Part shown: positions 7,331 through 64,000 of the stretch, piece after piece | Position numbering within the stretch: position 1 is the stretch's first letter | Layout: the number at the start of each line of letters is the position of its first letter | Source of the DNA: Eledone cirrhosa | Lineage: Eukaryota | NCBI GenBank assembly: GCA_964016885.1 | Contig: OZ024745.1 | Location: forward strand, 81,964,001 to 82,028,000 | Direction: 5' to 3' | Length of the DNA stretch: 64,000 nt | Program-made: the position numbers and the translations under genes | Notes under the pieces: generated by a model | What the model saw: only the letters and a program-made list of their open reading frames with translations | What the model was told of the DNA's origin: nothing | Database searches by the model: none

Positions 7331-8049
7331 AAGCATTTGGAATGTTATTTATATATATATAGTTAAAACATATTTGTTATGTTATTCTACTGTAAATTTA
7401 TTTATATGCTCTGTATAATTCTGGGTTACCTCTTTTTTGGCGTAAATAAGTGGGCAGTCTCTCGAGGTCACCCCTGTGGTTCTCAAGGCAAGGGACAGAG
7501 GAAGAGACAGATATAAATAGCCTGTCTCAGACCAAGCGAAAAAGGCAGTTCGGAGCATTTCCTGATAACGATGTAAAACATTTGCTTTCTGCAGACCCTT
7601 TGGGGTTTACAGACTCTTATTCTCTCTCTTTCTTTCTCCTGGTCTTACAGACACTTACTTTCTCTTTTTCACTCAATCTCTATCTCTTGGTCTCTCTCTT
7701 AACCAAGCCAGTGAAGTTCAAGAAGTTTTCTTGATAAATACAATTTAATTCTACTTTTACAAACAAACAAATAACGTACATAATTCTTGTCTAGGCGATA
7801 TCCAATTTTAGCTGCCTAAATGCCGCTTACTTTCTGCAGTTGCTGCTTACTTCAATGTATGAGGCTATTCCAACAAATTTACATTCCCCCTTTTTTTAGC
7901 CGTTAAAAGATTTTTTTTTTTTTTTTTTTTTTTTTTGCGATTTATTTGCCACTGGGGCATAGATTTCTTTATTTGCCCCCCCCCCTTTTTCTTCTTTTTT
8001 TTTTCGATTTATTAGCCTTTTGGGGTCACACACACCCCCGTAGAAAGTG

Positions 8050-8176
8050 TGCGTTACTGTGGAGAAGGAATTAGAAACAATTTTATCAAAATTCACTGCT
8101 ATTCGGGAACATACAAAGCGAACTTTGGGTGACATAGCAACTTCTGTTGATAATATAAGGAAAGAAATCAGTGAAG
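8050..8176 (+). pseudogene. RMND5: Captured first-coding-exon fragment of RMND5 (CTLH/GID E3 ligase subunit), ATG lost, splice donor retained
   Basis: CVTVEKELETILSKFTAIREHTKRTLGDIATSVDNIRKEISE(G)|gtattt resembles the RMND5A N-terminus (MDQCVTVERELEKVLHKF...) as recalled; lies inside the TIR element. Confidence 0.75.
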
Positions 8177-8229
8177 GTATTTATTACATTTTGATTGCAT
8201 TTTTATTACAACCACTAATACTTACTATT

Positions 8230-8480
8230 ATACCGAGGGGCCCTGCCCGTTCGGGAAAGGCTCTACAGACACGGATTCCGGGATGGAAACCCCTTGGAAA
8301 AGAAATGTCCCAGATGCGTTTGCAACGAGGAAACTGTGGGGATATGTCGCCGGCCAACAAATGGTCCTCTTCTTCCGATACCACTTCGAAAGAAGGATCA
8401 AGGTGGAGAAAAAGGCACTCAGTCCTAGCCAATTCCATGAAAGATGGGTGAAAGTAGCAATAATTGTTTCTACTTTTGAA
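8230..8480 (+). mobile_element. Tx1/L1-clade ORF2 C-terminal fragment inside the Merlin-like element
   Basis: GQQMVLFFRYHFERRIKVEKKALSPSQFHERWVKVA is homologous to 61333-61518 (GQSLINFFKFHFERKVKVEREVLPPSTFAERWVNVA). Confidence 0.8.
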
Positions 8481-9162
8481 AGTAGCAATAATGGCCCGTG
8501 TAAGTGGGCCATCTCTCTATATCGGCTTGTACAGGTAAGAGAAGAAGGGAGCACCCCCTCTCTCTGTGCTCCCTGGCAGAAAGGTCGCACACTTTCTACG
8601 GGGGTGTGTGTGACCCCAAAAGGCTAATAAATCGCAAAATAACAAACAAACAAACAAAAAAGGGGCAAATAAAGAAATCTATGCCCCATAAATAAATCTA
8701 TATTTCTTTTAACGACTAAAGAAAAGGGGAATGTAAATTTGTTGGAATAGCCTCATACATTGAAGTAAGCGGCATTTAGGCAGCTAAAATTGGATATCGC
8801 CCTTGTCTATTTTTCGTATAGTTCCGGCGTGAGCTATTTTCAATAAATAAATAATATAGCGGTTTGGTGTCATCGTGGTTCAGTCAGATATATTCATTTT
8901 CTGCGTAATCAAGGAACGGCACTGTCATGGTATTAGCTGTCAGAAAGAAGGTCACGTCATTCGTCAACCTTCTCAATCATTTATTTCCGTATCACCACGC
9001 GTTTATTTACGTTTATGATTTTAAAAAAAATATGGGTACCAAATAACCACGTAATTTTCGAGAGAAACGATAATATACAATCTTATTTAACATGTGCATT
9101 AAAAACTACACTAGCTGTTACAATTGTAATTAACTTGTAAGAACTTAAATGAAAATATAGGT

Positions 9163-9177
9163 GGCCCTTAAAGGGCC
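9163..9177 (-). terminator. Mirror histone-type stem-loop (one T short)
   Basis: Minus strand caacacc-GGCCCTTTAAGGGCC-acct. Confidence 0.5.
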
Positions 9178-9218
9178 GGTGTTGAACTTAAATTTGTTTT
9201 CTAACTTGTTTCAACATC

Positions 9219-9234
9219 GGCCCTTTTAAGGGCC
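9219..9234 (+). terminator. Histone-mRNA-type 3' stem-loop
   Basis: caacatc-GGCCCT-TTTA-AGGGCC-acta matches the 6-bp stem / 4-nt loop SLBP consensus; no histone CDS nearby. Confidence 0.65.
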
Positions 9235-9616
9235 ACTATATTTTCATTTAAGTTCTTACACGTTAATTACAATTGTAACAGCTAGTGTAGTTTTTAATGC
9301 ACATGTTAAATAAGATTGTATATTATCGTTTCTCTCGAAAATTACGTGGTTATTTGGTACCCATATTTTTTTTTTTAATAAGTGTATCTCATTGTAAACG
9401 TATCTTCTACTTTCACTTTTGACAGCTAATACCATGACAGTGTCCAAGGAATTATCATATCATCATCACACCATCTTATTGAACACTTACTCACTTACTT
9501 AAACATATGCTACCTATGGTCACACTGTATCACACAACAAGCTACAAGTGAGCACGCACACAAACGAATCAACACCACAACGCAATCCACTACCAACATC
9601 GACCAACAAATAATCG

Positions 9617-12714: not shown

Positions 12715-14069
12715 TTAATAATAAAGATAAAATGAAAATCCTATAATACGTGTTTTTTTTGTTTTTTTTGGTTATACTGACGCCATAACCAACCCCAAAT
12801 ATAACAATCTATATCTATATATAATCAGAGATGTTTGTTTGTTGGTTGGTTCCTTCACACTTCACATACAAACGAAAAGTAAGCATAGAAATGGTATAAG
12901 GGTATACCTAGGAAAGTTAATTGATATTCATTTTATAAAATCAAAGAAGAAAATGATCCCGGGTATGCTAACCAACCCAACTGCTATTTCTAGCAGGTTG
13001 GGAGACAACCATAAGGGATTCTCTCCGCGCGTCCGTTGTCAACGATGCTCGTGTTTCGCAGCCAGCATCTCCATGGATTCGAATTCTGGTTTACATACAC
13101 ACACGTGTATGTAATTATCTATATCTATATTTATATAATAATATAAAAGATTGACATTCCCGGTAAAACAAAGAATCTGGTGTTTCTGGAATATTTTTGA
13201 CTTTTTTTTTTGTCACACACATAACTGTCTCGCTTCATGCCGTAAAACCAAACAATGCATCAAATAGTCGTTTTCTCTTATGTTTATTCGGGCGTTGGCT
13301 TCAAATTATATCAAGACACACACACACACACACATATATCCGTGTGATTGTGAATATGTTGAACTGAAACTTCGATCTCTCATTCTTAATAAAAACATTG
13401 CAGCTTAAGTAAACAAAATTAACAGACAACGATTTAAATCACCTCTGTTAATACCGAATATCCAACTCAGGCAAGCAGATTGAGTGCTGAACGTATTTCA
13501 ACTGTCTCTCTGTATAATGTATGTACGCATCTATTGATGTATGTATGTATATATATATATATAAATATATATAATAATAATAGTAATAATTATTTCTACT
13601 TTTGGCACAAGGCCAGCAATATTACTGGTTCTTTATTTTATCGACCCCGTAAGGATGACAGGCAAAGTTAACCTCGAAATAAAGTACCAGTAATACACTG
13701 AGTTTTGCTGGCCTTGTGCCAAAAGTAGAAACAATTATTATATATATTTCTCTATATATATACATACATGAGTAATAATGCTTTCTTTAATGAATAATAA
13801 TAGTAATAATAATAATATATATATATATAAAATGGTCTATTTTTAGTTAGCTAGCAGAAATGAATAGAAAGTTACTATTTACCTACTTTTATAGCTTCGA
13901 ATAAGTTTAGAAAAGTAATGCACTGCAGCTCTACACGTCCAGCGTACTATATATACATTTATCTAAATAAATAGGATATGAATTGAATATTGAATAGATA
14001 TGAATTAAATACTATGGATGATCATTCGTGATAAAACTGTTTTATCAACATACAGGAATGATTTACCAG

Positions 14070-17935: not shown

Positions 17936-19290
17936 TTAATAATAAAGATAAAATGAAAATCCTATAATACGTGTTTTTTTTGTTTTTTTTGGTTATACTG
18001 ACGCCATAACCAACCCCAAATATAACAATCTATATCTATATATAATCAGAGATGTTTGTTTGTTGGTTGGTTCCTTCACACTTCACATACAAACGAAAAG
18101 TAAGCATAGAAATGGTATAAGGGTATACCTAGGAAAGTTAATTGATATTCATTTTATAAAATCAAAGAAGAAAATGATCCCGGGTATGCTAACCAACCCA
18201 ACTGCTATTTCTAGCAGGTTGGGAGACAACCATAAGGGATTCTCTCCGCGCGTCCGTTGTCAACGATGCTCGTGTTTCGCAGCCAGCATCTCCATGGATT
18301 CGAATTCTGGTTTACATACACACACGTGTATGTAATTATCTATATCTATATTTATATAATAATATAAAAGATTGACATTCCCGGTAAAACAAAGAATCTG
18401 GTGTTTCTGGAATATTTTTGACTTTTTTTTTTGTCACACACATAACTGTCTCGCTTCATGCCGTAAAACCAAACAATGCATCAAATAGTCGTTTTCTCTT
18501 ATGTTTATTCGGGCGTTGGCTTCAAATTATATCAAGACACACACACACACACACATATATCCGTGTGATTGTGAATATGTTGAACTGAAACTTCGATCTC
18601 TCATTCTTAATAAAAACATTGCAGCTTAAGTAAACAAAATTAACAGACAACGATTTAAATCACCTCTGTTAATACCGAATATCCAACTCAGGCAAGCAGA
18701 TTGAGTGCTGAACGTATTTCAACTGTCTCTCTGTATAATGTATGTACGCATCTATTGATGTATGTATGTATATATATATATATAAATATATATAATAATA
18801 ATAGTAATAATTATTTCTACTTTTGGCACAAGGCCAGCAATATTACTGGTTCTTTATTTTATCGACCCCGTAAGGATGACAGGCAAAGTTAACCTCGAAA
18901 TAAAGTACCAGTAATACACTGAGTTTTGCTGGCCTTGTGCCAAAAGTAGAAACAATTATTATATATATTTCTCTATATATATACATACATGAGTAATAAT
19001 GCTTTCTTTAATGAATAATAATAGTAATAATAATAATATATATATATATAAAATGGTCTATTTTTAGTTAGCTAGCAGAAATGAATAGAAAGTTACTATT
19101 TACCTACTTTTATAGCTTCGAATAAGTTTAGAAAAGTAATGCACTGCAGCTCTACACGTCCAGCGTACTATATATACATTTATCTAAATAAATAGGATAT
19201 GAATTGAATATTGAATAGATATGAATTAAATACTATGGATGATCATTCGTGATAAAACTGTTTTATCAACATACAGGAATGATTTACCAG

Positions 19291-25875: not shown

Positions 25876-26519
25876 TGTTGCAGCTGCCAGTTCAGTTTAC
25901 ATTTTCGTTCGTGAGGCGTCGCCGAAAGCTGTCCTCTGTATTCCAGAAAGATATTTTTCTATTTACGTCCGTCTGTCAGCGTGGTCTTGTTTTACGTGTT
26001 CTATTCGTTTTAACTGCCATTGGAGACGGAGCTAACCGCTTTTGCCAACCACTCATTTTCCTTAAAGATCGATCAACGCCGGACTTGTTCATTCGTCGAG
26101 TTGTTGGATGGGACGTCTGAGCAAGGCCCTTTTCCTGAAAGATGGCTCCCTGTGCAATCTCTCGTATCGTTGCTGCCCGCCGAGATTGCATCCAAACGGC
26201 TGTGTTTTTTGTAGTGTTCGTTTATCAGTCGCTGTACACGGGTTACCAGCGGCCTTGCTATTCATTCGCTGAGTTTTTTGTCGGACGTCCGAGTGAGCCT
26301 CCTTTTCTCGAAAGATGGGTTCCAATGCAATCTCTCGTATCGGTGCTGCTCGCCGAGATTGCGTGTAAAGGGCTGTGTCCGTTGTAATGTTCGATGATAA
26401 TAGAAGACAGGTAGAAGAGAAAATGACTGTATTGGGTGTTTGTTTGATTTGCAGTATGAGGCGAGACCGTGATGTGTGATGTGTGTGTGCGTGCGTAAAC
26501 CAGCGTTCGAATCCGAGAC
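25876..26519 (+). mobile_element. Truncated copy of the solo LTR at 31628-32521
   Basis: Starts TGTTGCAGCTG; breaks at the palindrome junction; has an internal ~173-bp degenerate direct repeat. Confidence 0.65.
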
Positions 26520-29500
26520 CTTTCGGAACCGTTCAACATCATGCGCTCGGTCCGCCAAGGATGTCCCCTCTCGTCCCTCTTGTACGCATCATCAGCCATG
26601 GCATGCCCAGCCCTCCACGTAGCGGGTGTTTAGTGTAGATGGACCGCCTGACCATCGGAGCGCGTCCCTTCAACAAAAAGCGAAAGAGCAAACGCTCCAG
26701 CGCAGTCAGGCGGGGCTTAGGATAAGGTACGACGGTCATGCGGTAGTGGCGGACCGAGCGCATGATGTTGAACGGTTCCGAAAGGTGACCGTTCACTCTC
26801 ACCACAGAGCAGATGTCGCTGTGCGTGGCAGCGATCCAGCTTCTGAAGACGGGCCCAAAGCCCGCCGCCCTCAGGACTGCCGCAACGATGGTCGACCCTA
26901 TCGAAAGCTCTCGACTGATCTAAATTGATCAAGGACCCACCCGTGCCAGGTTCCCTAGCTATCCACTCTACGATGTATCGCATGAGGTGGAGGTTGTCGT
27001 GGATGGATCTGTCGGGAATGGCGTACATCAGCGCCTCTTCCACCAGACCACCAACGACAAGCGCCAACCTCTTTGCTAACACCGTGTCCAAAATCTTGAA
27101 CTCTGTGTTTAGCAGAGTTATGGGCCTGAAATTATCTATGTTATCCTCCTTGTTCGGATCCTTTCTCAGCAGCGCCACAGCTCCTCGGCTCACAGAGCTG
27201 GGAATTCTGCCGTTCTGTTGCCAGTTGCAGTAGACGTCCGCCAAGAGGCCTCCGAACAAGTCTGGCATCTGTAAATAAAGTTCATAGGGCAGACCATCCA
27301 AACCAGAAGATTTACCCCTTGTGCAGCCAGTCATTGCCTCCCGTACTTCAGCGGCTGTTATCGGCTTTTCGCAACACTCCGCCTCAGTGGCCGAGAGCCG
27401 CGGCAGTCCGTCGAGGTAGACACTAAAGTCCATCCCTCGATCCGGCCCGCGACTGCCCCCGAACAGCTGTGCGAAGTGTCGCTGAAAAGCTTCACACATT
27501 TGCCCGGGATCGAGTAGCATGCTCCCGTCGTGGTCCACCAAAGACCGGATCGTGGCTTTGTTGCCACGACGCGCCTCCGCCACTCGGACCCATTGAACGG
27601 CTTTCGTCCCCTCGTGTCTGAGAGCACGCACCCTAGCTCTGACAACACAGCCTTCGTGCTTTGCATTGAAGAATAGGTCAAGGGCCAATTTCGCCGCAAG
27701 TACGTCGGTCGCGATGCCTTTGCTAAGCGCCTCGTCTAATTTTCTAACTAATTCTCCCTCTGCTCTATTTTTCTCTATTGCTAAAGCCTTACTAAACCTA
27801 ATGGACTCTATTCTAATCACTCTTTTCAGAGCAAACCACCACTTGTTGTTGACGATGGCTCCCGTCAACGCCCGCTTAACTAGTTCGCTAATCCGGTCTA
27901 TGTAGGCCTTGCTCGCTGGCAAGGACGCGTTTAGCTTCCAATAGCCGGGTCCTCGTCTATGAAGCCTATCTAATTCAAGCACACAGATCACAAATTTGTG
28001 GTCCGTGTAGGTGACTATCTTCAATTATGGACAGCCTCTGCTAGACCTATCTATTTCCCTACAAAATACTCTATTTAGATATGATCTGGATGACCTGATG
28101 CGGATTGTCCAAGTCCACATTGGCACATTCGGGAAATCCAATCGGTACCTGTCAGACAGTTCAAAACGCCTGCGCAGGTTGGTGAGGCTCTTGCACCCTC
28201 CTCCCTTATCCGCTAATCCCACACAGTCCCAGCGTGCATCTAAGATCCCATTCCAGTCGCCCACTAACACTAAAGAGCGGGACGTTCCTGATTTCTTCCG
28301 GCGTCTGGACACCGGAAGAAATCAGGCCGCCCTGCTCCTGTCGGGGCATAGACGGCCACTAGCCTGAAAGCTTGCCCGTCTCCGCTGGTCACGTCCAGCA
28401 CCACCAACTTACCTTCTGGGTCCAGGAAGATGTCCCGTATGGCGAGATCCAAACCTCTCCGAAAAAGCAGAGCAACTCCTCCCTCCGATCCCGGACGGCT
28501 GGGAGATGCGTACACATCGTAGCCGCCGAAGATCGGTGCAAAGGCCCGTGCTTCGGAGATTCTGGTCTCGCTGATGGCCACTACATCTATGTTTAGTGAC
28601 CTGAGGTCGTTGAGCAGGTGGCCCTGCTTCCATGACGACCCCAAGCCACGCGCATTTATGCTGCCTATTCTGAGTGAGGTCATGTTGAAATGGAGTGGAA
28701 AAGATGGGAAAGACCACTTACCTTACTGCTCGTAGAGGAAGGGTGGTTTCTCCATCCTTTTCACTGTTTGTGGCCTCCTCCGGAAGGATGTCCTTATAAA
28801 TCCTCCCGGAGAGTTCTTGTCTGAAGTCTCCGATGTCTTTGGGGAATTTTTGTTTTAGTGTCGTGTACGTTTTCTGTGTGATGCGAGTGATTTGTATGTG
28901 TGGAGCTGGGGTGTTGTGTAGTCTTTTTCTGTGATGCTGGTGTTGTGTTGAATGTAGTGTAATAATTGGTTGTTGTTCAAATTTAATTGTTTCTACTTTA
29001 GGCACAAGGCCAGCAATTATCCAGTGTATTACTGGTACTTTATTTTATCGACCCCGTAAGGATGAAAGGCAAAGTCAACCTCGGCGGGATTTGAACTCAG
29101 ATCGTAAAGAGACGTAACTATGCTGGAAAGCATGGCGTCCGACCCTCTAGTTCAAATTTAAGGCTGTGTAGTGTGTATCGTTTTTGTTGTTTTGTTTTGT
29201 TTGCGTTTGTTGTGGGTTTGTTTCTGTTGCGCTTTTTGGTGACTTTTGTGGTGTAGGTGATGGTGGTGTTGGGGTTAATGATGGTGATGGTGTTGGTGTT
29301 TGTGGTGATGGGGTTGGTGATGCTGGTGTGGATGGTGGCATAGCTGTCCTAACTTTTTTGTTTGATAGTTTATTTGTTTCCTTCTGTATTTTGTTTTTGG
29401 AGGGGGAAGGAAGAGGATTTTTTCTTTTTTGGCATCTTTTTCTTTTTTTCTTTTTTCCTGATACCGTTTCCCACTCTTCGTCGTCACAATCTGTCTCCAG

Positions 29501-30230: not shown

Positions 30231-30394
30231 ACACTTTCTTTTTCTATATTTTTGGAGTTGTTCAAAAATAAAAGTATCAGTCACAGACCTGTCAACTCTC
30301 CCCGTCGGACGGGGAGATCTCCCACTCACTTTGGGACGGGTGAGGAATGTCTTCTCTTGTGAAAATGGGTATAGTTTTCATTATGTAAAATCTC

Positions 30395-31420
30395 CTCCAG
30401 CTGCTCCTGCTTCAGTTGAACTCCATTCGCATGTAGAGTGCGCTGCGCAGGCTTCCATGAGAGAATGACTGTTTCAGTTTTCGCAGCATTGATTTTCATT
30501 CCAGCCATGCAGCACTTGGCATCAAATCTATCAAGTACAAGTCGGAGATCACTTTCTGTCGAGTTAAGTAATACCATGTCGTCTGCAAACACCAGCCGAC
30601 TAATTTTACACCCGCCAGTTATGATACCACTTCCAACCCGGTTGCGCATGTCAATCCTGTTCATGAAAATAATGAACAGATGTGACAATACGCACCTTTG
30701 ACGGAGTCCAACTCCCACATTGAATGGTTTCCATTTAGCACCATTTATCCGAACACAAATACTCGGGCATTCGTATAGAGATATCAGGGCAGCAAGAAGC
30801 TGACCATCGATCCCATACTCCAGCAGAACCTTCCACAGCAGGTCCCGAGGAACGCGGTCATATGCCTTTTCAGGGTCTATAAAACAAGAATAAACCTCTT
30901 GGCAATATTCCCACGATTTTTTGAAGACCTACAGCTTTGTCTCGAGCATCTCCCTTCATCTCTTTGCCAGACATTTAACAGAGACTTTTCCGGGGAGGCT
31001 TAACAAGGAGATCGTTCTTTAATTGGAACCAACTCTCTTATCTCCCTTTTTGAAAATTGAGATTATCACTCCCGATTGCCACTGATTAGGCGCCTTTCCA
31101 GAGATCCAAGCCACCTGGCACACACGAGCCAGCCAGAGATTACCTTCTCTATTTAAGGCTTTTAACATCTCGGGCTGGATTTCATCTTCCCCGATAGCCT
31201 TGATACCTTTGAGCTTTTTAATTTCTCTTGTAACTTCAGCCTCCGAGGGATTAGTCACTGCTCCCAGATGTATCTCATGTACATCAGAAGATGCTGTTGT
31301 GATCGGATTTAGGAGATCGGCAAAGTATTCTCTCCACCTCTGAAGAGAGAAGAACCCCAGACGCGTTCCTGATAACAGGTGTGGAGGAGGACTTCTTATT
31401 ACGAATGCTGGGTTTACGTT
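30395..31420 (-). mobile_element. RTE-clade LINE RT fragment
   Basis: RWREYFADLLN, KAIGEDEIQPEMLKAL, GLRQRCVLS, LVFADDMVLL. Confidence 0.88.
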
Positions 31421-31627
31421 CATTTAATCTACTCCCAATACTTAATTAATACACCAAACTGAGAATAAAATTGTGTGATGCCGATTCTGTATATGTCGCT
31501 CCCAATTTTGTTCGGAGCTAATTTACGTCTTCAAAAACGGGTAGTGTTTATTAATCCAAGGGAAGTAACTCTATTTTGCAATTACAGTCTTAAACTTGAA
31601 ATCTGTTCATAATATAAAAGATATTTT

Positions 31628-38499: not shown

Positions 38500-41400
38500 C
38501 ACCGGTGGTTATGTAACCATACATTCACCAATCCTCGATAAGAGTGTTTAAATGTCGAACCTAAACAGTTCGAATAACGGTGAAGTGGAGACTGGAATGT
38601 CATGTGACAGACTCTCACCCAGCAAGTGCTCCCTGGCTCAGCATCAGGGACCTGGCTGTCAACCAAATACTGCTGGTGTCGGAGGAAGAAGAAGAAGGAA
38701 AGGGACCAGAACCAACTGGACGAAAGAATTGAATAGAACTGTTATGCAATGTTACCTGAAGAGTAACCCCAAGGAAAAAGGCTATAGGAAACGGATGCAT
38801 AACATCTGGAACGAGATTGGTCTATTTAAATTAGATGAACAAAAATTGGCGGGGCAGGCTCGGGTAATAAGAACTAATGGGTGGATAAGCGACCTGGAAC
38901 TGGAGGAACTGAGCAGAGAGATTAGGTTGGAAATGGAGAGTGGAGTATGCCAGGCAAACGAGCCAGTGGGAAATGAAGGGGAAGAGGTTGAGAGAACGGA
39001 GGAACCATCCGAAGCAGACAATGATCTGAATGCTGAAATAAATAATACCCGGAACAAAGATACGGCCATTGAGGAGATGAATGCTGACGAGCTAGGACAA
39101 GATTTGGTTGATATCCTAAACTTAGTGGTAGATGAATTGAACAATGATAGTGGGAAACCTATGAACCTAAGACAGGAAAAAGTTAAAAGAAACAACAGCT
39201 AAGGTAAACAAAGTCACCCCATACCTTGAGGCGAGGAGTCTTTACCAGTGCAACAATATCCTCAATGCAACAGCAAATGCGGTGAGGAAATTACTTGGCA
39301 TAAAAGCGAGAGGAAACAACAAACAAGAAAGATCAGAACCTTGGCGGAAGAAACGACTGAATGGTCAAATCAGGGAAATGAGAAATGACATTGGAAAACT
39401 TGAGTCCCTACTGAAGGGGACACTAAAAAAACATAGACACTAAAGATAGACTGGAAATAAAGTACAAAACTAGGAGGAAAAAGCTAAATATTATCATAGA
39501 AGAACTGAAGCAACGCATTGTAGCAAAGAGTACAAAAATTAGGCGATACGAGAGCAGAGTCAGTCAGTATAGACAGAACCGCATGTTTGACAACAACCAG
39601 AAGATGTTGTTTGGACAGCTTGAAGGGAAAGAAAGAGGCAACGACTTGATCCCTGAGGCGGAACAGACTAAGACATTCTGGGGAGGAATATGGGAGCAGG
39701 ATGTTAAACATAATGACCAGGCAGTGGGGATTGAGACAGTACAAAAGGAGATTAGTGAACAGGCACACCAACAAACTGATTTGAGTATCACAGTTGAAAC
39801 TCTTAAGGGGCAGGCCAAAAAACTAACCAACTGGACATCACCAGGCCCAGATGGTGTGCAGGGTATTGGATTAAAAATATAACATCCCTCCACCCGAAAC
39901 TGACAACCATGTTCAATGACTGCTTGATGTCAGGTGAGGTACCAGAGTGGTTGACAAAAGGTACCACCATTCTGGTAATGAAAGACCGAATCAAGGGTAA
40001 TGATGTTACCAACTATAGACCTATCACATGTCTGTCCGTAATGTGGAAACTGTTGACAAGCATTGTGTCTGAGGAAATCTACCATCACCTCCACACAAAC
40101 AACTTGTTACCGGACGAACAGAAAGGATGCCGAAAGAAGTCTCGTGGTACAAAGGACCAGTTACTTATTGATAAGATGGTAATGAGGAATTGCAAGAGGA
40201 GACACACTGGTCTTCCCATGGGATGGATAGACTACAAAAAGGCATTTGACATGGTGCCTCATTCTTGGATCACCAAAAGCCTAGAGATCTTCAAGGTGGC
40301 AGATAACATCAGACAGTTGTTGAGCAAAAGTTTGAAGTCCTGGAAAACAGAGTTAACATCAGCTGGAGAATCCTTGGGAGGCGTGAAGATCAAGAGAGGT
40401 ATCTTCCAGGGAGATAGTCTGTCCCCTCTGTTATTTGTCCTTGCCCTGATGCCCCTGACCATTATACTGCGAAAAGTGAGAGCATGATACAAGTTGGGAA
40501 AGGGAGAGCTTACCATCAACCACCTTCTCTTCATGGACGATCTTAAGCTCTTCGGGAAGAGTGAGAAGGAGTTGGATGTACTTGTTGACACTGTCCGTAT
40601 TTTCAGCAATGATATATGTATGCAATTTGGTATTAGTAAGTGTGGAGTCCTTGTGATGAAGAGGGGGTAAATTGGGCAGAAGCAACGGAATCCAGGTACC
40701 AACAGGTGAGATGATAAAGGAAATTGACACTGAAGAAGGATACAAGTATTTGGGTGTTCTGGAGGCTGATGACATCAAGAACAAAAAAATGAAGGAATTG
40801 ATAAGATCTGAATACATTCGGAGAGTAAGGAGCGTATTAAAGTCACATCTGAACAGTAGGAATGCCATAAGTGCAGTAAATTTCAGAGCTGTGTCTATTA
40901 TTAGGTACAGTGCGGGAATTCTGAGATGGAATGTTGCTGAACAAAAAGAAATGGAAAGGAAGACTAGGAAGCTATTGACTATCTACAACATGTTCCACAA
41001 GAGGAGTGATGTCGATAGACTCTACTTAAGGAGATCTGAAGGTGGAAGAGGTCTTATCAGCATAGAGGACTGTGTCCAGATGGAGAAAAATAACCTACAC
41101 AAATACGTGACTGATAGTAAGGAGCCAATGTTCAGAATTGTACTGAAGGAGAGGACAATAGACCAGGGGATGTCCAAGGAGGAAATAACAACAAGGAGAA
41201 AGAGCAGCCTTCATGAAAAATCCCTTCATAGTACCTTCTTTGAGAAAACTGAATTCAGAGATCCACAGACATGGAACTGGTTGAAAAGAGGAGACCTTAA
41301 AAAGGCCACAGAAGGAATGCCAATGGCTGCGCAAGAGCAAGCCCTAAAAAAGAAGTGGCTGAAACACCATATTTACAAGGAGGAGGCTAGCCCACTGTGC

Positions 41401-42045
41401 AAGATCTGTGGAGGAGAGAGAGAGGCGACTGTGGCTCACATTGTATCCGAGTGTAAACACCTAGCCCAGACTCACTATAAGGGCTGGAGACATGATATGA
41501 TGGGCAGGGTGATCCACTGGCACCTATGCAGAGGATAAGCCAGAGTCGGTGATAGAAAACGATCAGGTGAAGGTGCTGTGGGATTTTAGGATACAGACGG
41601 ACAAGACACTAGAACACAATAGACCTGACCTGGTAGTTTTAGACAAGGAAAAAAGATCGTGCCTGATTGTGGATGTGGCCTGCCCATTCGACACGAGAGT
41701 GCAAGAGAAGGAGAAGGAGAAGGAGAAGGAGAAAATTAACCGATACCAGGACTTAAAGTGGGAGATAAAAAGGATTTGGAACTGACATGAAGTCAAAGTG
41801 GTCCCGATTGTCATAGGCGCACTAGGTACTATCTCAAAAAGTTTCCAGGGATGGTTAAAGAAAATTGGCCCCTTCACGCTTTTTGGAACACTTCAAAAGG
41901 CATGCTTGCTGGGAACAGCAAGAACCCTCCGATACGTCCTGAATATCTGAGGCTGCAGGTAGTGGCTTGATATTCATTTCAACAAACTTTCCAGTTAACT
42001 AACATCAATGACTGAGACTCAAAGAACAATAATAATAATAATAAT
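38500..42045 (+). mobile_element. Near-full-length decayed R4/Dong-clade (RLE) non-LTR retrotransposon
   Basis: Broken single ORF ~38552-41950: YRPITCL, EQKG, DYKKAFDMVPH, GIFQGDSLSP, FMDDLKL, YKYLG, CKIC...HIVSEC zinc knuckle, RPD...IVDV...KEKINRY nuclease; (AAT)n(GAT)n tail. Confidence 0.92.
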
Positions 42046-45089: not shown

Positions 45090-46760
45090 CAGTTAGCGGC
45101 GGTGGGACTAGGTGGGTAATAAGCAGTCATGACTGCAAAGATCATAGGTATAGATCCTTTCTCCAGACACAGAAAATAGTGAACTTGGCTTGGAAATAAG
45201 AGCTTTTCTTGCACTTGCGAATCGCAGAAAAAAAAAGTAAAGGCTGCTAAAGTTAAGACATTGGAGGACTTTGGGGTTAAGCTGAAATCCGACTTCAGAT
45301 CAGCAAATAAAGTGTTCTGGCAGACCACCCACAGACTTTGTAATAAAAAGTCCACACCTGTTATCAGGAATGCGTCTGGGGTTTCTTTTCTCTTCAGAGA
45401 GGTGCATCCTCGCGAGGCGGAGAGAATACTTTGCTGATCTCCTAAACACGATCACAACAGCATTTTCTGATGTACACGAGGTGCATCTGGGAACGAAGAC
45501 TAATCTCTTAGATGTTGAGGTCGCAAGAACAGTTAAAGAGCTCAAATATGGCAAAGCCGCTGGGGAAGATGAAATCCGGCCCGAGATGTTAAAAGCCTTA
45601 AATAGAGAAGGTGTACTCTGGCTGACTCATGTGTTCCGAGTGGCCTGGATCTCTGGAAAAGCACACAAGTAATGGAAATTGGGAGTGATAATCCCAATTT
45701 TCAAAAAGGGGGACAAGAGAGTTTGCTCCAATTACACAGGGATCTCTTTGTTAATCATCCGCGGTAAAGTCTATGCTAAGTGTCTGGCAATAAGATGTAG
45801 GAAGATTGTCGAGTCCAAGCTAGCTGATGAACACTGCAATTTTTGCCACGGACGCAACTCAGCCGACCAAATATTCATACTGCAGCAGGGTCTTCAGGAA
45901 ATAGTGGGAGTATTGCCATGAGGTATATTCTTCTTTTATAGACCACGAAAAAAAAACATGACCGCCTTCCTCATAACTTGCTGTGGAAGGTTCTGCAGGC
46001 GTATGGGATCGATGGTCAGCTTCTTGTTGCCCTTATGATTCTATACGAATGTCCGAGTATTTCATTCAATGTGGAAATCGGACTCCACCAAGGATGCGTA
46101 CTGACACTTCTCCTGTTCAGGATTTTCATGAACAGGATTGACATGCGCAGCCGGGTTGGAAGTGGTGTCACAACTATCAGGTAGGCTGGAATTTGCTGAC
46201 GACATGGTATTACTTAACTCGACAGAAGGTGATCTACTTGCACTTGATAGGTTAGATGCCAAGTGATGCATGGCTGGAATGAAAACCAGTGGTGCGAAGA
46301 CTGGGACACTCATTTTTTCAAAGAAGCCAGTGCAGTGCACTCTACATGTGAATGGAGTTTCACTGAAGCAGGTGAAGAAGTTCAAGTACCTCGGGGCCGT
46401 AATCATGAGTGATGGAAGGCAGGAGGCTGGATTAAGTGCAAGAATTGCTGGAGCTGGTGCAACAATACGTCAGCTTCAGCATTTGGTAATCAGAAGAAAG
46501 TAAAAGTCAAATTCGTTATCTTCAATTCAATATTCGTGCCAACTATTGGGCATGTGGTTAGAATGTCTCATGAAAGAATCGCTGGACTGATTTTGCGGGC
46601 AAAACCAACTGGCGGGAGACACAGGTGTAGACTCTGAGCAAGATGATTGGGTAACATGCATAAGCTTTGCTGGTCTCGCTTGGGGATATAGCTTATTAGT
46701 TGGACACGGCTGCTTGTGACAGGACCTGCTGGAAGGTGTGTTTGAGGACTCTATATTGGA
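45090..46760 (+). mobile_element. RTE-clade LINE, decayed
   Basis: EYFADLLN, KAAGEDEIRPEMLKAL, PIFKKGDKRVCSNYTGISLL, FADD, FKYLG. Confidence 0.9.
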
Positions 46761-53400: not shown

Positions 53401-53579
53401 CTATGTGTGTAAAGTTTGTGATAGGTACACCGTGAGCAAAGCTCAAACTCAAGTAAAGCCACCGAGAGACAGGAATTGAGAAGTTACTGTTAACTGTCAC
53501 ACATTATTACACACTAATCCTTCACAATGTCTTGGAGAATTAAGAGACTTGTCATACATATGTATATGTGGAGTATGGT

Positions 53580-54540
53580 TGAACAACACTACAATTACCA
53601 CCACTAATATTATCACCACCATTACCACCACCACCATTACTACCATTACAATCATCATCACCACTACTATCATTATTAACATCAACACCATCATCACCAC
53701 CAACATCATCATCGCTACCACCATCACCACCATTATCATCACCACCACCACCAACATCATCGCTACCACCACCACCATCACCACCATCAACAACATCATC
53801 GCTACCACCACCACCATCATCACCACCAACATCATCATCGCTACCACCATCATCACCAGTACCACCACCAACATAATCACCACCAACATCATCATCGCTA
53901 CCACCGTCACCACCATTATCCTCACCACCACCACCACCATCATCGCTACCATCACCACCACCACCATCATCATCGCTACCACCTTCACCACTATTATCCT
54001 CACCACCACCACCATCAACGTTACCATCACCACCACCACCATCATCATCACCAACATTACCAGCACCACCACCATCAACACCATCATCATCATCATCATC
54101 ATCATCTCTACGACGACGACGACGACCACCATCATTATCACCACCATCATCATAACCATCATTACCACAACCATTACCATCGACATCACCACCACTATGA
54201 CTACAACAACTAACATTATTACCACCACCACCACTATCACCATGACAACCATCATCACCACCACCACCATTATTATCATCGCTACCATCACCATCCTTAC
54301 CACCATCACGACCATTATCATCACCACCATCAGCACCATCACAACAACCTTCATCATTGCCACCACCACGATCATCACTACCATTACCACTACTCATCAC
54401 CAGAACCATTATCATAACCGCCATCATTATCACATTACCACCACCATCACACAACCACCGCCTTCACCACTATCACCCTCATCATTACCACCACCATCAT
54501 CATCATCACGACAACAACATCATCACCACCCCTACCACCA
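53580..54540. repeat. ~1-kb cryptic (CAC/CAT)n trinucleotide expansion
   Basis: Phase-locked ACC/ATC units produce spurious T/I-, V/M- and G/D-rich ORFs. Confidence 0.9.
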
Positions 54541-54629
54541 AAAGAACACTGCACATAACCGAGGCACACAGAGCTGCGCTCAGTAATGCCGTAACAACAA
54601 GCAATAAAAATAAGGTTAATGTTTATAAT

Positions 54630-55050
54630 ACTGGTTTTTGATTTAGGCATAGGGCCAGCAATGTTTTGAAGAGGGGGAAGTCGATTAAATCGACCTCAGT
54701 GCATTACTGGTACTTTATTTTATCGATCCTGTAAGGATGAAAGGCAAATCTCACCTCTGTGGGATTTGAACTCTGAACATAAAAGGCTGTAACTATATGT
54801 TGCAAAGCATGTTGTCCGGTGCTCTACCGACTTTATCAATCCATCACCATATTAATGTTTATAATAATTGTTTCTACTTTTGGCACAAGGCCAGCAATTA
54901 CCCAGTGCATTACTGGTGCTTTATTTTATCGACCCCGTAAGGATGAAAGGCAAAGTTAAGCTCGGCGGGATATGAACTCAGAATGGCAAGGGCCGTAACT
55001 CTATACGTCAAAGCATGGCGTCCGGCCATCTACCGATACTGCCAATCCAC
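54630..55050 (-). mobile_element. Two tandem SINE copies
   Basis: Both contain TTTATTTTATCGA...GTAAGGATGAAAGGCAAA...TGAACTC. Confidence 0.8.
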
Positions 55051-61092: not shown

Positions 61093-64000
61093 ATAATAAT
61101 AATAATAATGATTTCATTTATTGGCCACAAGGGCCGACATATAGGGGACAATACAAAAGACTGGGACAGTGGGGGTTTACATATACAACGTGTAAACAAT
61201 AATAACAATAACAAAATAGCAATAAGGGGGATGACCACCCAGGGTTCACTCAGGTACCCCACCAATCCTGAACGACCCGACGCTTTGAGAGCACCCGGGA
61301 AGGTCACCCCTCTCCTCCTCAAATTCAGCCACCTACAGGTGCATGATCAGAGTAGGTCCACTCACACGGGCCATTCTCGCCACATTCACCCACCGTTCAG
61401 CAAATGTACTGGGGGGCAGCACTTCTCTCTCCACCTTCACCTTCCTTTCAAAGTGAAACTTGAAAAAGTTGATGAGGGATTGGCCGAAGAGAAAAGTGTC
61501 TGTCTTCAGTCCTTTCAACCTAGTCCACTATACAACCCCTTTCGCTACTGCCACCAGACAGAGGAAGATTGCCTGCCCTTCGTGGCCAGGTCGATTTTCA
61601 CTATGGACTCGGCCGATAGCCGGATCCGTTCTACACGCGACAACAGCTGTTCAACATAATTCCACAAGTCAATAATGCACAGGCACTGGACGAGTGCGTG
61701 CAGAACGGTTTCGTCGCTCTGTGCGCATCTCGGGCAGGTCCGTCTGACAGCACTTCCGTGTTTGTAGAGTTTATCTCGAAACGGCAGTGCCTCCCGATAG
61801 CACTGTAAAGCGAGGGATTTTTGGAAATTATACATCGTCACCGGCTCGAAAGTCCTCCGGAACAGACTGGTTAGTTCGACTCCGAGTGCATCGTCGCACT
61901 TGCCCACCACTAATCCTCTATAGAACTCGAGAGTGGATGTTCCACTGACCGCATTGGCCGCCTGGTAGAGGGCAGTGGGTGCTGGCAACATTCCAGATGC
62001 CAGTCACCCAGTCTCGGTCTCTTCTTGACCCAGGACATCAGCTCAGTCAAAGAGACGAGCTGTGGAAAAGCCCGTCTGACAAACGGCGACCACACCTGTT
62101 CACTATTAAGGAAGAATATCTGGAGATGCCGCAATCTCAGCCTGTCTGCGCATCATTAGCTACGGCATGCCTAGCCCTCCACGAAGAAGGTGCTGGCAGC
62201 AGATGGACCGCCTCACCAACGGAACCTGACCCCTCCACAAGAATTTGAAGAGGCGCCGCTCCAAGTTCGCGAGGCGCGAACGGGGGAAAGGGACGACGGT
62301 CAGGCGGTAGTAGATGACGGACGCGATGTACGCGTTCGCCACCTCCGCCCGACTTTCAGTAATAGCTTCCTCGCAGCCCATTTCTGGGTGAGACTGGCTA
62401 CGCTGCCCGTCACCTCGTTCCAATTCTTATCCACCTGGAGGTCTGACCCGAACCAAACCCCGAGCAACTTTACCGGTCCGTCCGTCCAGCACCCAACGAC
62501 GCTGTTGGACAGAATGGACTTGCCTCTCCAGGTGCCGAGTTGCAAGCCCACCGACTTTTCCGGGTTAAGGTTTGCTCCCGTCAACCTTTCATATTCCTCC
62601 AATAAGTTGCTGACCACCTCGATTTCTGAGGTGTCCGACACCATCACGGTGATGTCGTCCGCATAAGCCGACACAGCCTTTCCGCGTCCCGGTTCGAGCG
62701 GGATGCCCTGCAACAGCTCCAGCTTCCGCAGTAAAGGCTCGAGAGTCAATACGTACAGAAGGTAGGAGAGAGGGCACCCTTGACGGACCGATAGGGAGAT
62801 CTGAAACAGTTCCGAGAGGTGGCTATTAACTTTGACGACCGAGCAGATGCCACAGTGCACTCACAGCGATCCAGATTCTGAAGACGGGACCGAAGCCAGC
62901 CGCCTAGAGGGCAGCCTCCAGGTACCGATGGTCGACCCTATCGAATGCTTTCAATTGATCTAAATTGATCAGATCCCCACCGAAGCCAGGTTTACACTCA
63001 ACCCTCTCTATGATGTATCACATCAGGTGGAGGTTGTCGTGTATGGACCTGGTTGGGATTGCGCAAGTTTGCGCCTCCCCAACCAAATCCTCGACGACAA
63101 GCGCCAACCTCTTCGCTAAAAATCTTAAACTGTGCCAAACTTGGCCAAAATCTTAAACTGTGTAGAGCAGTTATGGGCCTGAAATTGTCTAATGTGTCCC
63201 TCTTGTTCTCGTCTTTCCTTAGCGTCACTACGCCCCGGCTCACAGAACTGGGAATACTCCCGTTCTGCTGCGAGTTACAGTAGAACGCTTCGAGGAGATC
63301 GGAGAACAAGTCTGGCATATTTAGGTAAAGCTCGTAGGGCAGATATCCCAAACCGAGTGACTTGCGCCTGTTGCAGCCAACAAGGGCATCCTGAATCTCC
63401 GCTGAAGTAATCGGCCTTTCGCAGCGCTCAGCGTCGAGAGTTGCGGCAAGCCATCGAGGTAGGGACTGAAGTCCACCACCGTCTCTGACCCGCCACTTCC
63501 CCCCGAACAACCGAACAAAATGTTGGCGAAAGGCCTCACACATCCGCTTGGAATCGCTCAGCTCGTGTCCATCTCGGTCCGTCAAAGACCGAATTGTGGT
63601 TTTATTACCACGCTGCGCATCTGCCACGCGGGCCCATCGAACAGCTTTGGTTCCCTCGTTTCTCAGAGCACGCGCCTTAGCTCTGACAATGCAACCTTCG
63701 TGTTTCACATTGAAGAAATGATCTAATGCCATTCTCGCCGCTAGCACGTCAGTTGCAATGCCACTACAAATAGCCTCGTCTAACTTATCTACCAACTCCC
63801 CTCCTTTCTATTTTTCTCTAACGCTACTTCTTTGATAAAGCATGTCGACATTACTCTAAGCTCTCTTTTGAGAGCCCCCCACCATCTATTGTTGACGACT
63901 TCCCCTGTCAACTTTTTCTTAACTAAATTGTTGACCTGGTCCCTGTAAGCTTTACGTGCCGGAAATGACATGTTCAGCTTCCAGTAACCAGGTCCTAACC
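61093..64000 (-). mobile_element. Tx1/L1-clade LINE ORF2 (RT, zf-RVT) and 3' end with (ATT)n tail; runs off the window
   Basis: GYWKLN, FRPIT, AFDRVDH, SVRQGCPLS, AYADD, GGLGMP, CPRC...ETVLHALVQC; several frameshifts. Confidence 0.92.

Follow-up and report, generated by a model that had tools for sequence, protein, structure and literature searches.

Merlin transposons have been described with GG termini, target-site duplications (TSDs) of 8 or 9 bp and terminal inverted repeats (TIRs) of 24-462 bp (Feschotte, 2004, as summarised in PMC8101967). The element considered here and its family share with them the GG termini, the 8-bp TSD, a DDE_Tnp_IS1595 transposase and internal tandem repeats, but differ in carrying host-gene cargo and in having arms of up to 1.9 kb (PMC8101967); the terms "captured" and "palindrom" are absent from the main text of that paper. 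The preliminary description of this locus took gene capture to be best described for plants, but it is also reported for animal TIR elements. In a survey of 100 animal genomes, 87% of the Pack-TIRs were hAT or Tc/mariner and only four were multicopy, and in the available part of that survey "Merlin" appears only as a column head in one supplement (PMC8277862). Animal Pack-TIRs, including Ssk-FB4 (FB4 has a TSD of 9-10 bp), are similar to the present case in having a host exon between TIRs, an intact parent, repeated transposition and chimeric leader transcripts, as for worm rpb-4 (PMC8277862). However, the cargo here occupies at least 72 loci, and it is also present in transposase-bearing copies and doubled into the TIR.

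Three further systems bear on the comparison. The capture of histone H3 by a fungal hAT element (PMC6710886) likewise places a housekeeping sequence in a complete DNA transposon with many copies and an intact parent, but it concerns another superfamily and kingdom, and its abstract contains neither palindromic cargo nor a hand-over between elements. In Galileo of Drosophila, the TIRs grow to ~1.25 kb by recruiting internal sequence, and inter-TIR repair has been proposed (PMC3573991). Galileo belongs to the P superfamily and recruits its own sequence, whereas the Merlin described here recruits a host exon; its longest TIRs are found in transposase-free copies (PMC3573991), whereas here a full palindrome holds two transposase genes. 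Fragments captured by plant Pack-MULE and Pack-CACTA elements are possible sources of small RNAs against the donor, as might apply here, although plant silencing pathways are involved there (PMC13317346). No Merlin with host cargo was found in the literature covered, which included the available parts of PMC5753468, PMC10294476 and PMC13317346, with subscription journals, bioRxiv supplements and Repbase/Dfam outside the scope of the search.

The present element lies in a 64,000-nucleotide stretch of the 3.0-Gb genome of Eledone cirrhosa (hereafter the window; C5:81,964,001-82,028,000), where it spans 1,008 bp at positions 7794-8801. We consider it probable that it is a non-autonomous Merlin carrying part of the first coding exon of RMND5 and the start of the following intron. 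It is likely an internal-deletion product within a family in which a transposase-bearing ancestor had likely acquired the RMND5 piece a single time, with template switching in DNA repair as the most likely route. Six-frame translation of the element revealed no transposase in its interior, as the preliminary description had stated. Genome-wide, the terminal 18-mer was matched exactly 204 times in forward and 215 times in reverse orientation (419 in total), against none for a reversed-pattern control, so the ends of the element are not a chance resemblance. An 8-bp duplication flanks the element exactly at 7786-7793 and 8802-8809. The element splits a dispersed host repeat (7488-8917), whose flanks 7488-7793 and 8802-8917 are contiguous in 4/4 paralogous loci checked, and empty sites with a single copy of the 8-mer were found genome-wide (6 exact and 54 with at most one mismatch; control, 0). 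Because the element interrupts a dispersed repeat whose empty paralogues carry one copy, the 8-mer is a true target duplication made at insertion, and the perfect TSD noted earlier is thereby confirmed. Empty-site joints in sequencing runs X2-X4 (a 1,016-base skip) were also considered as a sign of insertion polymorphism, and this was rejected since paralogous empty sites exist.

The inverted arms of the element, 7794-8053 (260 bp) and 8586-8801 (216 bp), are identical over their first 31 bp and contain indels further in. The TIRs of ~220-260 bp reported initially therefore stand in length, but they are composite. Merlin terminal and subterminal sequence makes up 7794-7910 (forward strand, inner limit approximate), with a GG start and short GCTGC-type repeats, and the same terminus encloses Merlin transposases elsewhere; its inverted match at the right end is 8702-8801 (reverse strand). 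In contrast, 7911-8053 (reverse strand) and 8586-8701 are LINE 3' end and not native Merlin ends. Alignment to LINE copies identified the former as inverted LINE 3' UTR and 3'-tip repeats copied from the right arm. The T-run at 7911-7937 was considered as a LINE poly(A) tail and rejected, since closer LINE copies end in short tandem repeats. Between the arms, the forward strand contains RMND5 exon (8054-8176), RMND5 intron (8177-8231) and an internally deleted LINE 3' end (8232-8701) comprising the ORF2 end, 3' UTR and 3'-tip repeats, of which 8586-8701 doubles as the inner right arm.

The left edge of the cargo is a deletion junction (8053/8054). By alignment, the window copy equals a 1.7-kb palindromic copy of the family minus 704 bp of internal sequence. 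The junction is exact at four loci, two with their own TSDs (the window and L002) and two resembling a segmental duplicate pair; a fifth match with one mismatch (C2:128.12 Mb) was dropped because the fetched locus lacked the element module. At this junction, where the RMND5 sequence begins (8054), no bases are shared with either donor, which does not bear out the TGCG said to be shared between TIR and exon. Nor is the inner TIR edge the site of capture, as had been thought from the cargo beginning there; the capture sits behind the transposase of the full-size element. Judged by these alignments, the window copy is a late deletion product, and the capture event took place elsewhere.

The parent gene was located by a CTLH-domain search (C5:79.54 Mb) followed by mapping of full-length RMND5A homologues. 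It has nine exons (C5:79,536,336-79,558,761); exon 1 is followed by GT and exon 2 is preceded by AG. Exons 2-7 were matched at this locus only, and the other 96 of the 103 scored matches cover residues 1-46 alone, which indicates that RMND5 is a single-copy gene in this genome. The nearest named RMND5 is from a gastropod (70%). The cargo at 8054-8224 differs from the parent at 7/171 bases (95.9% identity), in agreement with the host RMND5 exon recognised in the preliminary description; the stop-free, RMND5-like frame that it had seen ending at G|GT indeed ends at 8176/8177. The exon part runs from coding base 14 to the splice donor with 6 differences from the parent, each changing an amino acid. 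The parent exon reads C-L-T-V, and the "C-V" of the cargo was created by the deletion junction and only mimics the human protein. Beyond the GT donor, 48 bp match the present RMND5 intron, or ~55 bp by comparison with the fullest copy; the intron piece reaches ~85 bp in the fullest copies. The match of 8177-8585 to intron 1, proposed as a check, thus held for 48 bp only, and 8225-8585 has no match to the present RMND5 intron beyond one 15-mer. The earlier view that genomic, intron-bearing RMND5 was transduced is supported in so far as an exon with its intron start is present, and the template may have been genomic DNA or unspliced RNA. A word-indexed protein search with the 45-aa exon gave 9 candidates, none significant; another protein match was weak (E 0.18), and Pfam returned only sub-threshold coiled-coil matches for the exon.

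The cargo lies 3.8-4.1% from the parent. Over 64 arms, its fixed changes comprise 6 non-synonymous and 0 synonymous in the exon and 1 in the intron. In a related species, RMND5 is parent-like at five of the six changed residues, which places the substitutions in the transposon. We considered and rejected a protein-coding role for the cargo, as 6/6 fixed exon changes are non-synonymous, numbers that are small and not significant alone. The exon sequence thus appears free of protein constraint, again on small numbers, and the cargo is most likely a passenger without protein function. Separately, at position 8137, one of six diagnostic exon sites, the window copy has the parent base, as do 6/63 arms; this may be a reversion, a retained ancestral state or conversion by the parent. 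At the parent locus, the leader in run X1 reaches upstream past the captured edge by at least 255 nt (G000:C5:79,536,050-79,536,175). Because the transcribed leader starts well upstream of this edge, the RMND5 promoter was not captured. A motif ~110 bp upstream of the captured edge is presumably ETS-like.

A transposase with the DDE_Tnp_IS1595 domain (PF12762) was found between the same termini; the L098 frame scored 46.3 bits against a cut-off of 27. This frame contains the catalytic residues D172, D234 and E273, with the three blocks assigned by inspection and not from a curated Merlin alignment. It had 137 genome matches, and 30 loci were fetched. Among the distinct transposase elements above 80% identity, RMND5 sequence follows the transposase on its 3' side in 14/14 (the exon in 13, UTR alone in 1), whereas 0/12 transposase loci at 40-71% identity have RMND5 sequence within 1.5 kb. 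This contrast indicates that the RMND5 capture predates the spread of the family and is specific to it. Several of the 12 diverged loci start with a related GGCGAT terminus and have short TIRs. Thus, although the window element is non-autonomous, transposase-bearing copies of its family carry the same RMND5 cargo. None of the 14 family loci has a full-length transposase frame (the longest from a start codon is 283 aa, compared with 320-340 aa in sister families), and an enzyme encoded within the family is therefore only the presumed agent of mobilisation. No close public relative of this transposase was found, the best match being 60%.

The family is present in high copy number. A 23-mer across the exon-intron junction has 105 genome matches, one of them in the parent. 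The 100 matches listed correspond to 73 loci on 18 contigs, 25 of these loci being inverted pairs, and the junction is therefore carried by at least 72 transposon loci. Among 53 end pairs, the TSD is 8 bp and exact in 33 and has one mismatch in 10, and 9 bp fits 0/53. The remaining 10 end pairs have two or more mismatches, and several of them are wrong pairings of nested ends. Distinct 8-bp duplications on copies with the same cargo show that these copies transposed after the capture. The GG start of the TIRs is common to the window element and the family ends. Taken together, the termini, the enclosed transposase and the 8-bp TSDs corroborate the Merlin-like assignment made initially, and the proposed search for loci with this TIR, their TSDs and a DDE_Tnp_IS1595 partner led to many loci, distinct duplications and the 14 transposase elements. 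The findings named there as possible refutations, namely no RMND5 match, a sole exon 1 spliced to downstream exons or TIRs of a Mutator transposase, were not encountered. Many family copies are exon-free (e.g., L108-L113). Family members are also often nested in one another (L099, L114, L152, L153, L157), and 8-bp duplications flank some of these nested copies. The one-armed copies L179, L180 and L181 lie on different contigs but have the same flanking 8-mer, and so they probably spread passively inside another repeat.

The copies differ widely in arm length. In the least rearranged copy, L145, the matching ends are ~70 bp and the cargo is at the 3' end only, its RMND5 piece consisting of ~160 bp of leader, a 136-bp coding part and ~85 bp of intron. 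From there, arm lengths form a ladder of about 70, 260, 280, 521, 608, 796, 927, 1,130, 1,340 and 1,875 bp. In L150 the palindrome is complete, with two 1,875-bp arms (98.6% identical) and two transposase genes. A frequent non-autonomous form is also palindromic, measures 1.7 kb and has arms of ~790 bp that both contain the exon. The window copy (216/260 bp) and L145 lie inside the range of 24-462 bp described for Merlin, and derived palindromes, with arms of up to 1,875 bp, exceed it. The TIR has thus been extended by recruiting internal sequence of the 3' arm, which resembles the behaviour of Galileo in an element that is not a P element; the arm copying may have proceeded by repair between the inverted ends. 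Across 13 two-armed elements, arms diverge by 1.6% within and 1.9% between elements, and 10 minor alleles are on both arms vs 103 on one. These values suggest that the elements spread in a fairly recent burst and that arms were copied in episodes. They did not support continuous homogenisation, since arms within an element are barely closer than arms of different elements.

Similar structures occur in other Merlin-type families of this genome, which also appear as inverted transposase pairs (L105, L106; C28:102.76 Mb, C1:45.54 Mb, C4:282.85 Mb), and palindrome formation may be common among its Merlins. In the window, a second GG-ended element (8918-9444) lies 116 bp downstream of the first, with 26-bp inverted ends and a 7/8 flanking duplication. 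In its interior, two 164-nt arms (96%) form a palindrome around a 23-nt loop, and by eye the element has a motif in common with L105 and L106.

The captured exon is also present in a second type of element. A hAT family (L171-L177, e.g., G000:C2:364,154,434-364,158,873) is 4.4 kb long and has 7 loci, short TIRs, an 8-bp TSD and an 883-codon ORF that is uninterrupted in 2/7. The full ORF matched PF05699 (31.8 bits) and PF14291 (82 bits), and nothing was found by Pfam in its first 253 aa. In all 7 loci, one and the same 8-bp site, some 70-90 bp inside the left end, is occupied by the Merlin-RMND5 insert, which has a different terminal sequence beyond its first 12 bases. A forward RMND5 donor is kept upstream of the ORF in 6/7 loci, ~540 bp upstream in 5 of them, and the hAT-borne exon has an in-frame 45-bp deletion. 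Both ends were found for four hAT copies, and in 3/4 of these the duplications are exact and distinct; six copies have about 98.5-99% of their sequence in common, which indicates that the hAT moved with the Merlin insert. It is likely that a host exon was handed from one mobile element to another. Two further loci, L183 and L184, share with the hAT loci both the insert and the 8-mer beside it.

Run X1 has no recorded type, and we regard it as RNA-like because it contains spliced contigs. In this run, a 1,435-nt contig with parent alleles exits at the donor, and the mixed consensus past the donor is a merge of RMND5 exon 2 and a second sequence at 30/30 positions. A contig with transposon alleles (depth 31.5) also ends at the donor; one branch continues into the intron (21.4), and the other continues in the second sequence for at least 255 nt. 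The second sequence is present at 7 loci, always behind an AG acceptor, 11 nt before the hAT ORF start. In runs X2-X4 (one sample), a 198-bp contig crosses the donor unbroken, as expected of DNA. One contig from one run of one study thus shows the captured RMND5 donor spliced to the hAT transposase exon, and such contigs give neither strand nor level. The earlier suggestion that the capture could seed exon shuffling gains this single splice, and the RNA-like nature of X1 qualifies it. The 45-bp deletion of the hAT-borne copies is absent from the X1 exon contig, where assembly simplification could hide it. X1 contigs also cover parts of the Merlin transposase, with gaps that were given no weight, and no window-specific alleles were seen in X1. 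The spliced product would hold a 31-codon upstream ORF in frame with the hAT transposase start, with one stop between.

These observations can be arranged into a course of events. The order in full-size copies is terminus, transposase, RMND5 5' UTR with exon and intron start, LINE 3' end and terminus. The RMND5 piece would have been copied in at the DNA level, and the LINE end would have inserted beside it afterwards. The 3' arm would then have been copied repeatedly over the 5' end by inter-end repair, giving the cargo within the TIR and the palindromes that are seen. As their distinct duplications show, palindromes and deletion products, including the window type, moved by cut and paste, presumably with the family's own transposase. 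Finally, a palindromic derivative entered the 5' region of the hAT, with which it travelled, and the single contig suggests that its donor splices to the transposase exon; for the hAT, the spliced RMND5 exon would then be a leader that contains a short upstream ORF.

For the order of the RMND5 and LINE events, more than one account can be given. The fuller copy L145 establishes 8232-8701 as LINE sequence (zf-RVT at 31.9 bits, above the cut-off), so that the piece first described as Tx1 is retained as a LINE 3' end that includes the end of ORF2. Its alignment with LINE copies, both inside and outside the window, extends across the 3' UTR as far as the 3' tip, and its DNA is 63-70% identical to that of one LINE of the window. 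It follows next after the RMND5 piece in most of the 14 transposase-bearing elements. We lean slightly towards a DNA-level RMND5 capture first and a LINE insertion second. This order fits a LINE-less subfamily in which the RMND5 piece ends at the same base and is followed by an A-run. Alternatively, RMND5 might have entered together with the LINE, either because reverse transcriptase switched to unspliced RMND5 RNA or because the LINE 5' junction was patched, leaving the chimera behind the Merlin transposase. We hold this possibility only tentatively. The RMND5 piece and the LINE adjoin within 2 bases in the same orientation, with the LINE running to its natural 3' tip, and this abutment together with LINE tail-like motifs retained in the LINE-less form favours such a coupled entry. 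All captured RMND5 sequence also lies inside the primary transcript, as the parent leader in X1 extends at least 255 nt further, and LINE-mRNA chimeras have been reported in other work (10.1101/2025.02.02.635956 and PMC2104539, in the parts available). However, inspection revealed no clear duplication around the joint insert, and the LINE-less subfamily would require an exact deletion. It is distinctly unlikely that an ancestral RMND5 allele already had the LINE end within its intron and that both were copied in a single DNA-level step. A single event would account for the adjacency, and the intron piece differs from the present parent near the junction, pointing to a donor allele other than today's; but the present RMND5 intron has no such LINE, and the copy would need to stop exactly at the LINE tail. 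The window itself also contains broken LINE copies (26089-28722, 30326-31423, 38552-41538, 45286-46469 and 61349-63807), with RVT_1 at 26717-28024 and zf-RVT at 61545-62003, and the copy at 61349-63807 is a relative of the LINE piece of the element. Among its other repeats, identical 127-codon frames at 12731-13114 and 17952-18335, 5.2 kb apart, suggest a local duplication, and 53480-54641 is a long imperfect trinucleotide repeat with low-complexity open frames on both strands.

The long arms of the family raise the question of a Mutator-type (Pack-MULE or foldback) element with the Merlin transposase as a passenger. Arms of 0.5-1.9 kb exceed the range given for Merlin (PMC8101967) and recall MULE or foldback elements. 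However, the ladder of arm lengths indicates that the long arms are secondary, and sister Merlin families with 60-65% similar transposases have the same GGCGAT start and short TIRs. MULEs make TSDs of 9-11 bp, and the duplications here are 8 bp, with none of the 53 end pairs fitting 9 bp and with GG termini, so that a Mutator-type origin is highly improbable. A different matter is why the Merlin family kept its cargo. RMND5 sequence is present in all 14 transposase-bearing family elements fetched and in every hAT locus found, and palindromic copies form a long inverted repeat with donor mRNA sequence: 22/278 parent 21-mers are exact on both arms of the palindromic copy, and the exon is predicted to be fully paired in the 1.7-kb copy by folding without a shuffle control. 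The one-armed window copy has no such repeat, with 0 parent 21-mers on both arms and the exon on a single strand only. Retention might therefore be helpful to the element, if hairpin RNA matching the single RMND5 mRNA made silencing costly to the host, a conflict of the kind described for maize in the available part of PMC13317346, or if the leader and donor favoured expression. We regard this as unlikely, since the exon is lost from many copies (the terminal 18-mer has 419 matches vs 105 for the exon junction), descent from one master would suffice, and the parent RMND5 is intact and spliced in X1. A fuller relay is doubtful as well. In it, Merlin would have folded the exon into its terminal repeats and delivered it into the hAT, where it would be a working spliced leader of the intact transposase gene, in frame with the start codon and with one stop between, and dozens of palindromic copies would yield hairpin RNA that matches the single RMND5 mRNA of the host and makes silencing of the family costly.

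The window element is a real Pack-type Merlin derivative, and it ends a series that can be traced from capture behind the transposase, through copying of the cargo into the TIR and dispersal over at least 72 loci, to transfer into a hAT whose transposase exon receives the captured donor in one contig. Each of these steps has a precedent in other systems, while the superfamily, the copy number and the combination are without precedent as far as searched. Our results extend gene capture to the Merlin superfamily and add an unusually high-copy animal case, compared with the four multicopy Pack-TIRs in 100 genomes. Since one genome holds the intermediates from the short-TIR form to the full palindrome, TIR growth by arm copying is open to stepwise study. 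In addition, the palindromes allow a plant-derived idea to be tested in an animal, namely that captured fragments turn silencing against an essential single-copy gene. The captured donor is used, according to one contig, in a second mobile element, which can spread the exon further.
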